Shown one piece after another: positions 43,155 through 54,413 of a stretch of 64,000 nt of DNA. The DNA lies in the IMG/VR virus record IMGVR_UViG_3300045988_081431, positions 1-64,000 of that record; one strand, 5' to 3'. The notes under the pieces were generated by a model. That model searched no databases and was not told the origin of the DNA. It saw only the letters and a list, made by a program, of their open reading frames with translations. Position 1 is the stretch's first letter, and every line of letters starts with the position of its first letter. The DNA comes from a virus. The position numbers were made by a program, and so were the translations under genes.

Positions 43155-44312
43155 TTGAAACAATGTAAAGATTATAACGATTTGTTAATACAGAATGTTG
43201 ACATTGGCTCTCTTGAGACTGAACCCCTAGATATTACTTGTTTGAATGTTCTTCTTGAGGAGTATCCAAAGAAAGAAGACCAATATAAAAAGGCATCTCG
43301 GTTCTGTAAGTCAGTCACCGATAAAATGGTTCTTGCCGATATTGCCACAATGCTGGCAAAACGATGGGAGCGTTCCATTGAAGATGTCAAAAATTATCTC
43401 GATGTGACTGCAACGAGTGGTGAAGAACTTTGGGAAAAAGTCCATGGTTTTAATGACTCATTTGAAGACATGAAGACATTCATCGGTCAAGAGGGTGTTC
43501 CCCTTGGTTTTCCATCCTTGGATTTTGCAATCAATGGTGTTAAACGCAGAGAAATCGTGTTGTTGGGTGCATATACCAACCAAGGTAAGTCATTCTTTGC
43601 AGCCAAGGTTGCCGCACATCGGTTAATGGACTCTAATGATAATGTCTTGATTTTCTCTTTGGAGATGCCACGAGGTCAATTTTTGGCTGAAATCGTCAAG
43701 GAAATTCTTGGGGTTGAAGAAGACGAGTTATTCGAGATGTTGCAAACAGAACAGGGTATCGAGATTTATTCCAAGGTGTCTGCTGTGTTAGACAAGCGTG
43801 TTCGTTTTGTTGATGAGCCGAATAAAACTATTGAAGACCTTGAGAAGATTACCGAGGTTTGTTATGCTAATGACTTCCCTGTAGATTTTGTTGTGTTCGA
43901 CCACTTCCATTTGATACCTGACATTGATGATATTCCTGTGTTGTCTAAAAATGCAAACAAGATGAAAGAGTACGTTAAAAAGTTCAACTTGATTTTGTTT
44001 ATGCTTTGCCAGTTCAACGAGGAATCTCAAAATACCTTTGGGAAAGAAAAAAGTAAGAAACCATATGAACCAATCTTGAGATACATCAAAGGTTCTAATG
44101 CGTTAAAAGCCATCGCAGATATTATTCTGTTGTTGTGGCGACCATATATCACCGATACGCAACTTGATTTTGACGAAAGAGAGAAAGTCAAAAATCACAC
44201 CTATGTTAAAATTGGTAAGACTCGTAGAAAATTACGAGGACCAGCCAATATATTCCAATTCAAGTATGACGAGAAAACATCTCATTTGTCAGAGATTAAT
44301 TATTTCTCATAA
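43155..44312 (+). CDS. DnaB-like replicative helicase (RecA-type C-terminal domain)
   Basis: Walker A 'GAYTNQGKSFF', Walker B 'FVVFDHFHL', and 'IKGSNALKAIADIILLLWRP'. TTG start after an AGAGGTG RBS. Confidence 0.7.
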   Translation: MKQCKDYNDLLIQNVDIGSLETEPLDITCLNVLLEEYPKKEDQYKKASRFCKSVTDKMVLADIATMLAKRWERSIEDVKNYLDVTATSGEELWEKVHGFNDSFEDMKTFIGQEGVPLGFPSLDFAINGVKRREIVLLGAYTNQGKSFFAAKVAAHRLMDSNDNVLIFSLEMPRGQFLAEIVKEILGVEEDELFEMLQTEQGIEIYSKVSAVLDKRVRFVDEPNKTIEDLEKITEVCYANDFPVDFVVFDHFHLIPDIDDIPVLSKNANKMKEYVKKFNLILFMLCQFNEESQNTFGKEKSKKPYEPILRYIKGSNALKAIADIILLLWRPYITDTQLDFDEREKVKNHTYVKIGKTRRKLRGPANIFQFKYDEKTSHLSEINYFS

Positions 44313-44338
44313 AATATGACAAATATATAAATTAATAC

Positions 44339-44367
44339 TTGACTATGACGACTAGATGTGATATTAT
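44339..44367 (+). promoter_or_regulatory. sigma70-type promoter of the non-coding/tRNA operon
   Basis: TTGACT, 17-nt spacer ending in TGa, TATTAT. No ORF lies downstream for about 1.2 kb. Confidence 0.6.
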
Positions 44368-44690
44368 AATAGTGTACTAAGGGGGTTAGACAACCCTTAG
44401 TAAGCCTCCTTTCTTAACATAGTCAACGGAGTAACATCCGTTGACACACATGGGTCGTGCAGGATGCAATCAACACACTTGATTTTGGGTTCAATTCCCA
44501 AGAGACCCAATAGCATAAACGGTGCTTGCTACCGTGTCAAAAGTGAGCGTTCCATGTGACGAGAAAACATGGCAGAGACAACTGGGAACCATCACTATAG
44601 ATGTAAAAGATGGGTCGCTTGGTTGATGTGCGACAAACAAACATCAAAAAACAGGTTACTGTTCAGCCTGTAGAATAAAAACAGGGTTGT

Positions 44691-44794
44691 GCCATTCCAT
44701 AATCGCACCGTCAGACAAGACGTAAATATCATATGTAAAAATGTAGAGCATTCCATTTTTACTGCCGTCAGACCAGACGTTAAAATCATGTAGT
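44691..44794 (+). repeat. imperfect tandem duplication (period 57 nt) inside the non-coding leader
   Basis: GCCATTCCATAATCGCACCGTCAGACAAGACGTAAATATCATATGTA versus GCATTCCATTTTTACTGCCGTCAGACCAGACGTTAAAATCATGTAGT. Each copy holds a CGTC-N6-GACG hairpin. Confidence 0.7.
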
Positions 44795-44932
44795 GCAGGC
44801 TGACATTAAAGTGTCTGCTACGAGTGTACACATCTACCGCCGATGAGTATAGACGTATACGAACATAAGACATCGAGATTGCAATCTTTCGGTGGTCGAA
44901 TGATACAACAAGGATTGTATGGCGGTAGACAT

Positions 44933-45024
44933 GGATGGTTGTCAGAGTGGTTTATTGAGTCTCTTTGCTAAAGAGATGTCGTTCATTAAAACGACCATAG
45001 GTTCAAATCCTGTACCATCCTCCA
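44933..45024 (+). tRNA. tRNA-Ser (anticodon GCU), class II with long variable arm, CCA encoded
   Basis: Hand-folded. Acceptor GGATGGT/ACCATCC, anticodon arm TCTCT-TTGCTAA-AGAGA, variable stem GTCGTT/AACGAC, T arm ATAGG-TTCAAAT-CCTGT. Confidence 0.85.
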
Positions 45025-45029
45025 TTTAT

Positions 45030-45104
45030 TCTTGGGTAGTTCAATGGTAGAGCATCTGGCTGTTAACCAGAGAGTTATAGGTTCGAGTCCTATCCCAAGA
45101 GCCA
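45030..45104 (+). tRNA. tRNA-Asn (anticodon GUU), CCA encoded
   Basis: Hand-folded. Acceptor TCTTGGG/CCCAAGA, D stem GTTC/GAGC, anticodon arm TCTGG-CTGTTAA-CCAGA, T arm ATAGG-TTCGAGT-CCTAT. Confidence 0.9.
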
Positions 45105-45107
45105 CGT

Positions 45108-45197
45108 GGAAAGTTGGCAGAGTCTGGTTTATTGCATCGGTCTTGAAAACCGAAGAACAGTAATGTTCCGTGAGTTCAAATCTCACACTTTCCTCCA
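45108..45197 (+). tRNA. tRNA-Ser (anticodon UGA), class II, CCA encoded
   Basis: Hand-folded. Acceptor GGAAAGT/ACTTTCC, anticodon arm TCGGT-CTTGAAA-ACCGA, variable stem GAAC/GTTC, T arm GTGAG-TTCAAAT-CTCAC. Confidence 0.85.
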
Positions 45198-45353
45198 GAG
45201 CCAAGATATGTGTGTTACGGCATCGTATCGCCGAACGAGTTCTTTAAGGGGTTCTCGTTCGGATGGCATACATCGTGTTAATTGGGTAATAGTCCAAGAG
45301 ACACGCATGATTTTTCCTCCTGACTGACTTGGGGTAAAACCCAAGTCGCTCAT

Positions 45354-45424
45354 GCACTCATAGTTTAACGTAAAACGGCGTTTTATCATCTTCCGTCATG
45401 CAAGTTCGACTCTTGCTGAGTGCC
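45354..45424 (+). ncRNA. tRNA-like element / degenerate tRNA (no foldable anticodon stem)
   Basis: 7-bp acceptor GCACTCA/TGAGTGC, D arm GTTT-AACGTA-AAAC and a canonical T arm GCAAG-TTCGACT-CTTGC at tRNA spacing. The 17 nt in the anticodon-arm position (GCGTTTTATCATCTTCC) do not pair. Confidence 0.3.
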
Positions 45425-45496
45425 ACACTTCTACCTAACGATTATCTTTATCTTTAGTGTTCGCACTAGCACGTTAATCGTAGTGTACTCCTTGAA

Positions 45497-45542
45497 AAGA
45501 CCCAAGCGTTTTCCCTCCTTTCACGCTTGGGTCTTTTTTTTT
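45497..45542 (+). terminator. strong rho-independent terminator closing the tRNA operon
   Basis: AAGACCCAAGCG / 14-nt loop / CGCTTGGGTCTT, followed by a T run of about 9. Confidence 0.8.
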
Positions 45543-45557
45543 GCGTTTATAAAATGG

Positions 45558-45586
45558 TTGACAAACACAGACAAATACTGTATAAT
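45558..45586 (+). promoter_or_regulatory. sigma70-type promoter
   Basis: TTGACA, 17-nt spacer, TATAAT (both hexamers consensus). Confidence 0.7.
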
Positions 45587-45612
45587 AAGTATATACGAAA
45601 GCAGGTGAATAC

Positions 45613-46488
45613 ATGAAAGAAAATTCATTTCTTTGTCCTGACGGCAAGACCATATTGGTTAAAGACTGCATGAAAGAATGTCGTATGGGGCAACGATGCC
45701 TTGCCAAACCATTGTTGGTAAACGCAAGTCGTCTCAGGAATTTAAATAGAGACCACTTCTCTGTCACCGAGGTATTGTCTCCAACGTTATATATGTATCT
45801 GAAAGCAAACAATCCAGAGACAATCAATCCGTTCTCCTCGATTGCTGCAACAGTCGGTACATCCATGCATGGTATACTTGAGAATTGTCTGCCACAGAAT
45901 TACGCAGGCGAGTTTCGACTAAATTATCAAGGTCTCACAGGTCAGATGGACTGTATTGACTTAGAGCATCATACCTTGTATGACTATAAGGTCGTTGGTG
46001 CATACAAGTGTGCGACCATGATGGGTGGTAGACCATTGTGGCGACCATACACAATCACACGTGGCAAACGTAAGGGTAAAACCGAGATGCGACAACAATG
46101 GGTGTACGATGGGTTGCACCACTATGGTGATTACTGTAAACAACAGAACTTATATCGCATCTTGTTGAATAAACATGGTATCCCAATCAATGATATGTAT
46201 TTACAAGTCATTATCAAAGAACCAATCAACACAATCAAGACATTCAATCTAAGTCAGCAATGCTATTTGATACAACTACCCAAGATGAACGACCAGCGGT
46301 TACTTGACTATGCGTTATACAAGAAAGATGCCTTGGTAAATGCCATCGCCAAACAAGAATTACCACGAGAGTGTTCTGCAAAAGACCGATGGGTATCCAA
46401 GACATATCCAATGGGTCGTAAATGTAAAGAGTACTGCTCTGTATCATATTGTTGTCCATATTATCAGGAGAGGATTAAAAAGCGATGA
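45613..46488 (+). CDS. PD-(D/E)XK nuclease, Cas4/RecB-like with Cys clusters
   Basis: 'GTSMHGILE', 'GQMDCIDLE' and 'LYDYKV' (D...D/E-x-K), plus the C-terminal 'CKEYCSVSYCCPYY' and N-terminal Cys residues. Confidence 0.55.
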   Translation: MKENSFLCPDGKTILVKDCMKECRMGQRCLAKPLLVNASRLRNLNRDHFSVTEVLSPTLYMYLKANNPETINPFSSIAATVGTSMHGILENCLPQNYAGEFRLNYQGLTGQMDCIDLEHHTLYDYKVVGAYKCATMMGGRPLWRPYTITRGKRKGKTEMRQQWVYDGLHHYGDYCKQQNLYRILLNKHGIPINDMYLQVIIKEPINTIKTFNLSQQCYLIQLPKMNDQRLLDYALYKKDALVNAIAKQELPRECSAKDRWVSKTYPMGRKCKEYCSVSYCCPYYQERIKKR

Positions 46489-53990: not shown

Positions 53991-54156
53991 AGAATTGATT
54001 ATTGACATTAGACGAATGATTGACATTTGTTGCTTGTTATTGATGAGTGGTTCATTCATCAGAACATTTGTTTTCAACGACCAAGAATGGCTTGGGGCGA
54101 TGTTCTTAAGCGTTGTAATCTTATGTATGTTCCCAAGAAAGGAGACTAAGAGATGA
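53983..54156 (+). CDS. small membrane protein (57 aa, below ORF-track cutoff)
   Basis: Translation: MDKELIIDIRRMIDICCLLLMSGSFIRTFVFNDQEWLGAMFLSVVILCMFPRKETKR. It overlaps both neighbours, with an ATGA overlap at its 3' end. Confidence 0.4.
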   Translation: MDKELIIDIRRMIDICCLLLMSGSFIRTFVFNDQEWLGAMFLSVVILCMFPRKETKR

Positions 54157-54413
54157 GATTTCATGAAGCATACGAGAAGATGTGCGGTGGCAAGGGCATT
54201 AGACGACACCACTGGCCGCAAACACAATGTCTACGGATGAAAAAAGGTGTGATTTACGTTTGTACCGACCAATGGCACAAGCGGTTGAAATCAATAGATG
54301 CTACATGCATTACTTCATCTGATTGGACAACCACGGACATTCATCCGATTAAAAATACCACAGGCAAACAAGATATGCTTGAGTATTTCCGTAAATTAAA
54401 CAAGACATTATAA
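54153..54413 (+). CDS. DUF2829-like small protein (Tad2-family candidate)
   Basis: 'MRFHEAYEKMCGGKGIRRHHW' at the N-terminus and '...SSDWT' near the C-terminus fit my memory of the DUF2829 signature (M.F.EA...M..GK.iRR..W ... DW). Confidence 0.45.
   Translation: MRFHEAYEKMCGGKGIRRHHWPQTQCLRMKKGVIYVCTDQWHKRLKSIDATCITSSDWTTTDIHPIKNTTGKQDMLEYFRKLNKTL

Follow-up and report, generated by a model that had tools for sequence, protein, structure and literature searches.

The precursor of the tRNA cluster of phage T4 also yields stable RNAs that are not tRNAs (species 1 and 2) through the action of host tRNA-processing enzymes, and GOLLD and ROOL are structured noncoding RNAs (ncRNAs) of hundreds of nucleotides that phages encode beside or around tRNA islands. 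In Firmicutes, small RNAs (sRNAs) with C-rich motifs, such as RsaE/RoxS, LhrC, and the loops of RNAIII, pair with Shine-Dalgarno sequences and block ribosome binding sites. Non-decoding tRNA shapes that recruit RNase P or RNase Z, and in this way set the ends of adjacent RNAs, are found in mascRNA at the 3′ end of MALAT1, in plant mitochondrial t-elements, and in the tRNA-miRNA transcripts of murid herpesvirus 68. The 3′ external transcribed spacer of leuZ, freed from its tRNA precursor, serves as an sRNA sponge in E. coli (discussed in PMC6191717). Here, we analyzed a unit at positions 44339 to 45545 of a 64,000-nucleotide stretch (positions 1 to 64,000 of IMG/VR record IMGVR_UViG_3300045988_081431; hereafter, the window) that is part of an uncultured phage of ~65 to 72 kb. 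The unit is a single promoter-to-terminator transcription unit of ~1.17 kb in which three tRNA genes are embedded in a larger amount of structured RNA, and it is very likely a conserved structured ncRNA operon from which the phage probably obtains, in addition to tRNAs, RNAs that serve as regulators or decoys.

In kind, the unit belongs with the tRNA-island-associated phage RNAs (GOLLD, ROOL, and the T4 small stable RNAs), but no described family includes it. Other than tRNA, no Rfam family was matched at threshold by any module of the unit, whether the whole window was searched or positions 44200 to 45700 at E values up to 10, and neither GOLLD (RF01998) nor ROOL (RF03087) was matched anywhere in the window or, at E values up to 1, in five relatives. 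Since no Rfam match reached threshold, membership in GOLLD, ROOL, the riboswitches, or the known sRNAs was rejected. The match to LhrC (RF00616) was at chance level (24 bits, against a gathering score of 110), and other known sRNA families scored far below threshold. Unlike GOLLD and ROOL, the unit is modular, carries tRNA-like elements between its modules, exposes CCUCC motifs, and yielded no long-range leader-trailer helix. It differs from the T4 cluster in that the phage and the RNAs are unrelated, non-tRNA RNA dominates (~780 of 1170 nt), and processing is predicted. It shares with the Firmicute C-rich sRNAs the placement of unpaired C-rich motifs in linkers between hairpins and in a terminator loop, whereas the full anti-Shine-Dalgarno core with 16S-like flanks, the phage origin, and the presumed release from a tRNA precursor set it apart. 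The mascRNA, t-element, and herpesvirus examples are eukaryotic or organellar, whereas here the mascRNA match is below threshold and cleavage is predicted. The leuZ spacer is short, unstructured, and host encoded, in contrast to the several long, structured, phage-encoded modules found here.

Both limits of the unit were confirmed. A sigma-70-type promoter lies on the + strand at 44339 to 44367 (TTGACT, a 17-nt spacer, and TATTAT), matches the consensus at 10 of 12 positions, carries a TG extension, and is kept in every relative even though the surrounding flanks diverge; transcription would start at ~44374. An intrinsic terminator on the same strand (stem 45494 to 45509 with 45523 to 45538, a 13-nt loop, and then a T/U run) forms a perfect stem of 15 to 16 bp and is also present in every relative, with a stem sequence that differs between relatives while the pairing is preserved, a covariation seen by eye. 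One motif scan missed this terminator because its loop is 13 nt long. A first-pass annotation, made from the letters of the window, had proposed a good promoter at 44339 to 44367, a very strong terminator at 45497 to 45542, and no credible open reading frame (ORF) between them. The 10/12 consensus match and its conservation, the perfect stem with its T run, and the lack of any ORF conserved across 13 aligned relatives uphold these points; three ORFs are intact only in some close relatives. Given that the region is without any conserved ORF, small proteins encoded by the unit were ruled out. The RNA folds more stably than shuffled sequence, with z scores of -4.5 for the leader and -6.1 for the trailer. 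Just 20 nt past the terminator, a perfect TTGACA-17-TATAAT promoter (12/12; 45558 to 45586), kept in most relatives, drives the downstream exonuclease gene, and the noncoding operon is therefore transcriptionally insulated from both neighbors.

The unit occupies a 1.3-kb spacer between a gene for a DnaB-like helicase (43155 to 44312) and the exonuclease gene (45613 to 46488), and more than 50 related viral and metagenome contigs keep it. IMG/VR holds at least 34 related contigs of 65 to 72 kb, and ENA metagenomes contain 27 further loci, one of them titled human gut metagenome. When the helicase-exonuclease spacer was extracted from all loci, 31 distinct versions of 1041 to 1933 nt were obtained. 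The non-tRNA blocks at 44690 to 44930 and 45198 to 45270 are present in 30 of 30 relatives, the block at 45271 to 45353 in 25 of 30, and the block at 44513 to 44612 in 22 of 30; segments 44613 to 44690 and 45425 to 45490 are weakly conserved. The sequence flanking the tRNAs, on whose conservation the first-pass annotation had staked its reading, is thus kept in all or most relatives, block by block. The comparative covariation analysis that it had proposed likewise revealed compensatory changes in several modules. Since such changes keep helices in at least five separate modules, the non-tRNA RNA is under selection, and on this comparative evidence, what surrounds the tRNAs is structured RNA that has been maintained, not junk. 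G-U pairs are frequent in the modules, and the same positions would be A-C mismatches on the opposite strand; since these pairs work on the + strand only, the functional molecule is the + strand RNA. Together with the lack of an Rfam family, the conservation and the compensatory changes support the earlier suggestion that the unit might encode novel ncRNAs.

One such module is element A, a four-way junction of ~100 nt (44831 to 44929, + strand) identified by covariation and fold and present in one copy per genome. Its closing helix P1 (9 bp, 44831 to 44839 with 44921 to 44929) is invariant in sequence and surrounds three hairpins: hp1 (44845 to 44858), hp2 (44867 to 44895), and hp3 (44901 to 44918), the last directly abutting the 3′ strand of P1. 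This arrangement, CTACCGCC/GGCGGTAG enclosing three hairpins, had been anticipated as a long-range helix. In alignment A1 (19 distinct sequences), 99.7% of cells were paired, and 10 of 31 pairs had changed on both sides, a result reached by 0 of 500 shuffles (these and the shuffle counts below are not to be read as probabilities), while slid controls gave 0 to 1. In the wider alignment A6 (28 distinct sequences), 13 of 31 pairs had changed on both sides. Two relatives carry wholly different hp2 or hp3 sequences, and the hairpins still form. DNA identity among relatives is 82 to 99% for element A, compared with 78 to 84% for the flanking genes in distant relatives, and the sequence of P1 itself seems to be constrained. 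The hp2 tetraloop UGCA (44877 to 44882) is self-complementary and is kept even where the whole hp2 stem is replaced (in locus L129); this loop is a candidate kissing-loop dimerization site, as judged from its sequence. A hammerhead ribozyme was considered and rejected: the CCGAUGAG-hairpin-CGAAC arrangement of element A resembles the hammerhead core but fails at invariant positions, with U4 being C, position 15.1 being C, a G preceding stem I, and G12 being A in several relatives, and no Rfam hammerhead model was matched. Pattern-scan matches to element A outside the phage family were at chance level, in GC-rich coding DNA, and were discarded. Right after element A, a 118-nt stretch of one relative (L048:4807-4924) matches the tRNA model over its full span (50 bits), which points to a tRNA carrying ~45 inserted nucleotides that may be an intron.

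Two further regions carry statistical support. The first trailer unit (45198 to 45353, + strand) comprises a three-way junction, hairpin T3 (45272 to 45308), the single strand UUUUUCCUCCU, and hairpin T4 (45321 to 45352). The junction is closed by an outer helix (45200 to 45203 with 45264 to 45267) and contains hairpins T1 (45205 to 45229) and T2 (45231 to 45262). For T1, T2, and T3 together, 98% of cells in alignment A2 (23 distinct sequences) were paired, with 9 pairs and 54 cells changed on both sides (0/500 shuffles), and T4 covaries by eye. Hairpins had been noted earlier at 45231 to 45262, which is T2, and at 45329 to 45346, which lies within what we delimit as T4. In the leader, hairpins H5a (44689 to 44708) and H5b (44709 to 44722; CGUC-AGACAA-GACG), both on the + strand, showed changes on both sides at 7 of 11 pairs in alignment A4 (14 distinct sequences), and their covariation score was reached by 0 of 500 shuffles.

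The most distinctive feature of the unit, absent from the first-pass annotation, is a set of three exposed CCUCC motifs outside the tRNAs, which are kept on the transcript strand in 31 of 31 distinct spacers. CCUCC is the core of the anti-Shine-Dalgarno sequence. Motif 1 lies in the 18-mer CCUCCUUUCUUAACAUAG (44405 to 44422, + strand), single-stranded between the two hairpins of a 5′ unit of ~77 nt (44374 to 44451, + strand) that consists of a hairpin (44375 to 44402), a single strand (44403 to 44421), a second hairpin (44422 to 44445), and ACACAU. Two stable hairpins had already been seen here, at 44377 to 44400 and 44422 to 44445. The architecture of this unit (fold z = -4.6) recurs in all 31 distinct spacers with differing hairpin sequences, and its 5′-terminal hairpin starts 1 to 3 nt from the predicted transcription start. 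Both hairpins flanking the 18-mer differ completely between clades, whereas the 18-mer is identical in 29 of 31 spacers, the other two having a 1-nt insertion (L016) and one substitution (L048). In several relatives, it is extended to CACCUCCUUUCU, which is identical to the usual Firmicute-type 16S rRNA 3′ tail. Motif 2 (45316 to 45320, + strand) lies within UUUUUCCUCCU between T3 and T4. Motif 3 (45514 to 45518, + strand) lies within CCCUCCUUUC in the 13-nt loop of the terminator, whose stem sequence varies while the motif is kept; this terminator closes the second trailer unit (45425 to 45545, + strand; fold z = -6.95).

The predicted mean unpaired probabilities of motifs 1, 2, and 3 are 0.82, 0.65, and 1.00, respectively, compared with ~0.4 elsewhere in each unit. 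On the + strand of the window, 5 of the 13 CCTCC sites fall within the 1.2-kb unit (Poisson P = 6e-7). Since any one spacer contains only 0 to 1 GGAGG, the motifs have no pairing partner inside the transcript. A GGAG-type Shine-Dalgarno sequence was found in 57 of 101 phage start regions, and the host ribosome is therefore Shine-Dalgarno dependent. All three motifs thus present what an anti-Shine-Dalgarno-type sRNA would, namely, a conserved, unpaired CCUCC that is predicted to be accessible. With up to 3 mismatches allowed, the rest of the window contains no site complementary to the 18-mer. In 596 Gb of bacterial genomes, the 18-mer had four matches in unrelated taxa (an archaeon, a deltaproteobacterium, and two Bacteroidota metagenome-assembled genomes), about the number expected by chance; it was therefore not copied from a host and offers no clue to the host's identity. 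An exact copy, CCTCCTTTCTTAACATAG, lies on the tRNA strand of an unrelated 122-kb phage contig (L054:9444-9480; IMGVR_UViG_3300022753_000048), directly after tRNA-Gln(CUG) and a GGGCGAAAGCCC hairpin. This contig has 28 tRNA genes in 14 kb, with spacers of 100 to 900 nt, and the copy may mean that the motif has settled independently in another phage, or it may be a chance match (we would roughly expect 1 to 2 of these if IMG/VR comprises ~60 Gb). The element A covariance model had no match in this 28-tRNA locus.

The three decoding tRNAs, all on the + strand, were called by both ARAGORN and Rfam with the positions and identities annotated earlier: tRNA-Ser(GCU) at 44933 to 45024 (49.9 bits), tRNA-Asn(GUU) at 45030 to 45104 (69.1 bits), and tRNA-Ser(UGA) at 45108 to 45197 (57.1 bits). 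Each passes the Rfam RF00005 threshold and has a complete cloverleaf with a 7-nt anticodon loop. Across the relatives, the spacers contain 1 to 6 tRNA genes drawn from Ser, Asn, Gln, Tyr, Phe, Cys, Thr, Leu, Trp, and Met. This cassette is reshuffled between otherwise close genomes, and the recombination joints fall within T-arm sequence that the genes share. Nearly all relatives retain tRNA-Ser(UGA), the only tRNA that is so constant, and most also have tRNA-Ser(GCU); the two tRNA-Ser genes end in UCCUCCA with a U discriminator.

Two further elements have the shape of a tRNA without a decoding anticodon arm. tRNA-like element 1 (44452 to 44510, + strand), previously described as a minihelix in the leader, folds as a miniature cloverleaf with a 6-bp acceptor-like stem, a mini D hairpin, a hairpin whose 5-nt loop replaces the anticodon loop, and a canonical T arm with a UUCAAUU loop. 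It did not match the tRNA model (RF00005) at E values up to 10 and was not called by ARAGORN, and positions 44452 to 44508 gave a weak match to the mascRNA model (25.5 bits, against a threshold of 42.5). Relatives of the second clade (group 2) carry a different tRNA-like element at this position. tRNA-like element 2 (45354 to 45424, + strand) corresponds to the tRNA-shaped element noted earlier in the trailer, and the tRNA searches that confirmed the three tRNAs returned it as an additional fourth call (ARAGORN, "Ile-UAU"; RF00005, 38.2 bits, threshold 29). Its acceptor, D, and T arms are intact, whereas the anticodon arm is deformed into an oversized loop and does not form in the fold; with noncanonical anticodon-stem pairs and no 7-nt loop bearing a conserved anticodon, it is not a decoding tRNA. 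Among relatives, element 2 takes an arm-less 57-nt form in group 2 that still scores 51 bits, has a 3-bp stub in another clade, and has a near-normal anticodon arm in two genomes, and the anticodons given by ARAGORN are inconsistent or undefined. In alignment A5 (11 distinct sequences), its acceptor and T arms were 100% paired, with 8 of 12 pairs changed on both sides. The suggestion that the extra RNA includes decayed tRNAs is therefore only partly right: two tRNA-like elements exist, but the one tested, at 45354 to 45424, keeps covarying acceptor and T arms. Retention of these arms with loss or deformation of the anticodon arm looks, from the sequences, like selection for a nondecoding role rather than decay. 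Position -1 is a U in all five of the window's tRNA or tRNA-like elements, three of which are preceded by CAU. Since the surface recognized by RNase P and RNase Z is maintained without an anticodon, these elements probably serve processing or recognition rather than decoding.

The oversized loop of element 2 contains a UAUCAUCUUC box (45377 to 45392), and a related (C)AUCAUCUUNAUCUUUAGUG box, kept across clades, lies at 45437 to 45456 in the last unit. The GAUGAG junction of element A, which is invariant, is complementary to both boxes.

The explanation that we favor, and to which we assign a probability of roughly 50% as a whole, is that a single ~1.17-kb transcript carries three decoding tRNAs and several conserved structured RNA modules, with the tRNAs and the two anticodon-defective tRNA-like elements serving as the punctuation of a precursor. 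Each tRNA or tRNA-like element would be cut by RNase P at its 5′ end and processed by RNase Z or exonucleases at its 3′ end. Four RNAs would result: a 5′ RNA of ~77 nt (44374 to 44451), released by the RNase P cut at tRNA-like element 1; a leader RNA of ~420 nt ending in element A; a trailer RNA of ~156 nt (45198 to 45353); and a terminator-bearing RNA of ~115 nt (45425 to 45540). tRNA and tRNA-like elements bracket each motif-bearing unit exactly (44374 to 44451, 45198 to 45353, and 45425 to 45540), and processing punctuated in this way is, on sequence grounds, somewhat favored. Three of the released RNAs would each present one unpaired CCUCC(U) motif, pair in trans with the Shine-Dalgarno regions of mRNAs in competition with the 16S rRNA 3′ tail, and so reshape translation during infection; such anti-Shine-Dalgarno pairing is a tentative model. 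In a more speculative form, which we regard as possible but unlikely, the punctuated precursor would give a multicopy mimic of the 16S rRNA 3′ tail, consisting of anti-Shine-Dalgarno copies with 16S-like flanks that each follow a hairpin. These would either sequester Shine-Dalgarno sequences throughout the cell or serve as decoys for proteins or toxins that bind the anti-Shine-Dalgarno tail of the ribosome, such as ribosomal protein bS21 or endonucleases that cut the tail. The remaining modules, element A among them, would then represent new classes of RNA, each with a role of its own that might involve self-assembly.

Several observations weigh against the favored explanation. The covariation comes from a shallow tree, since none of the relatives is distant (their exonucleases share 88% identity or more); a metagenome protein-profile scan for more distant relatives returned only exonucleases at or above this identity. 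P1 of element A is invariant and never covaries, and its pairing therefore follows from complementarity alone. The tRNA-like elements found at one position in different clades might be separate cassettes. The best phage target of the 18-mer, the start region of 54153 to 54413 (-18.2 kcal/mol), was ruled out as a specific target, and the duplex is not conserved in 7 relatives beyond the ordinary Shine-Dalgarno sequence. A generic anti-Shine-Dalgarno RNA would also strike the phage's own mRNAs. Finally, the motifs resemble the 3′ ends of the tRNA-Ser genes (UCCUCCA) and could therefore descend from or mimic tRNA ends, not the 16S tail. In one metagenome relative (L137:2437-2457), a tRNA 3′ end is duplicated (CCATCCTCCATCCTCCA); CCUCC-bearing ends can thus be copied locally, a possible origin of the free CCUCC motifs.

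Some of the same evidence can be read differently. The unit might be one large ornate RNA of the GOLLD or ROOL kind, with 5′ and 3′ domains brought together around linked or embedded tRNAs and perhaps assembling into homo-oligomers. GOLLD and ROOL occur near tRNA islands, tRNAs sometimes lie in the GOLLD linker, and ribosomes are pulled down with GOLLD (PMC12286853), while phage K makes abundant long RNAs adjoining its tRNAs (PMC9241854). The succession of a ~560-nt structured leader, tRNAs, and a ~300-nt structured trailer fits such an RNA, and the conserved palindromic UGCA loop of hp2 could mediate self-association. However, the GOLLD and ROOL models gave no match at E values up to 10 with permissive filters, a column-pair scan revealed no convincing covarying leader-trailer helix (only AU-rich, one-sided matches), and RNase P and RNase Z would be expected to act on true tRNAs and on tRNA-like elements that have U at -1; as with the 16S-tail mimic, we regard a single ornate RNA as an outside chance. 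A decoy function against host defenses is, in our estimate, improbable. The exposed CCUCCUUUC would mimic the 16S tail and absorb nucleases or factors, and the anticodon-less tRNA-like elements, with the two tRNA-Ser genes, would buffer toxins that modify acceptor ends. In its favor are three exposed copies of the motif; the CACCUCCUUUCU of some relatives, which is identical to the usual 16S 3′ end; the retention of acceptor, T, and D arms but not of the anticodon; and the constancy of tRNA-Ser in this phage family, given that MenT/AbiE-type toxins prefer serine tRNA acceptor ends (PMC11541572, PMC7450476). The argument is one of analogy throughout, however, and it leaves the elaborate, conserved element A unexplained. 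The known MazF that cuts the anti-Shine-Dalgarno sequence needs UCCUU, which motif 2 (UCCUCCUG) lacks. A decoy role against tRNA-targeting defenses, as raised in the first-pass annotation, is unlikely for anticodon nucleases because the tRNA-like elements have no anticodon loops.

A purely cis-acting role, in which the leader and trailer would stabilize, chaperone, or scaffold the precursor for tRNA yield and then be degraded, accommodates the hairpin that starts 1 to 3 nt from the predicted transcription start and would guard against 5′ exonucleases, the structures that directly flank the tRNAs, and the persistence of the unit even when one tRNA is left. Against it, ~900 nt of conserved covarying structure is disproportionate for 1 to 6 tRNAs, the near-invariant 18-nt single strand (29/31) and the three exposed CCUCC motifs are superfluous for stabilization, and conservation is higher in element A than in the neighboring genes or the tRNA set. 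We consider a cis-acting role quite improbable. The shuffling of tRNA content with breakpoints in T arms, the many subthreshold tRNA-like pieces in relatives, and the weak conservation of segments 44613 to 44690 and 45425 to 45490 would suit nonfunctional sequence, that is, decayed tRNA genes and recombination debris in a fast-shuffling cassette array. Compensatory substitutions in at least five separate modules, blocks present in 30 of 30 relatives, and single-stranded motifs that are invariant or nearly so largely refute this for the conserved modules, and we give it very little credence. Among these possibilities, punctuated release of several structured RNAs remains our preferred explanation.

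The leader contains additional features between tRNA-like element 1 and element A. A block at 44513 to 44612 (+ strand) has hairpins at 44519 to 44536 and 44552 to 44588, with compensatory changes seen by eye. A second CGUC-AGACCA-GACG hairpin (44766 to 44779, + strand) repeats H5b. Where a 57-nt tandem duplication had been annotated, this hairpin does recur, as a 25-nt CGUC-AGACNA-GACG motif repeated 57 nt apart with 88% identity, but a tandem repeat is not present, since TRF finds none and the units are 72% alike. The second CGUC hairpin is preceded by UACUGCCG (44760 to 44767; UACCGCCG in some relatives), which repeats the 5′ strand of the invariant closing stem of element A (44834 to 44841) and could pair with the 3′ strand of that stem in its place. 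UAC(C/U)GCCG-N7-8-AGACGU boxes occur at 44705, 44760, and 44834, and these three repeats could reflect an alternative fold or a repeated protein-binding site.

In the rest of the window, PHROGs annotation identified a large terminase, a DNA methyltransferase, the DnaB-like helicase, the exonuclease, and a deoxynucleoside monophosphate (dNMP) kinase. No relative was found at the DNA level among GenBank phages. The helicase is 22% identical to P1 Ban, and the large terminase is 34 to 36% identical to those of Mu-like phages from diverse hosts. We attempted to assign a host from the terminase, the helicase, or GenBank DNA relatives, and none of them pointed to one.

Phage tRNA islands are usually read as codon-usage or anti-defense cargo, with no attention paid to the adjoining RNA. 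In this unit, the tRNAs can be exchanged, and what evolution keeps is the ~800 nt of RNA that surrounds them: at least five covariation-supported modules new to Rfam, two tRNA shapes without an anticodon, and three exposed copies of the sequence with which the ribosome recognizes mRNA. With lengths of 77 to 156 nt, the elements are short enough for direct in vitro work. If the proposed processing and anti-Shine-Dalgarno activity are true, the unit would give the phage a compact means of reprogramming or protecting translation, and new RNA families would join GOLLD and ROOL in the small set of tRNA-clustered phage RNAs.

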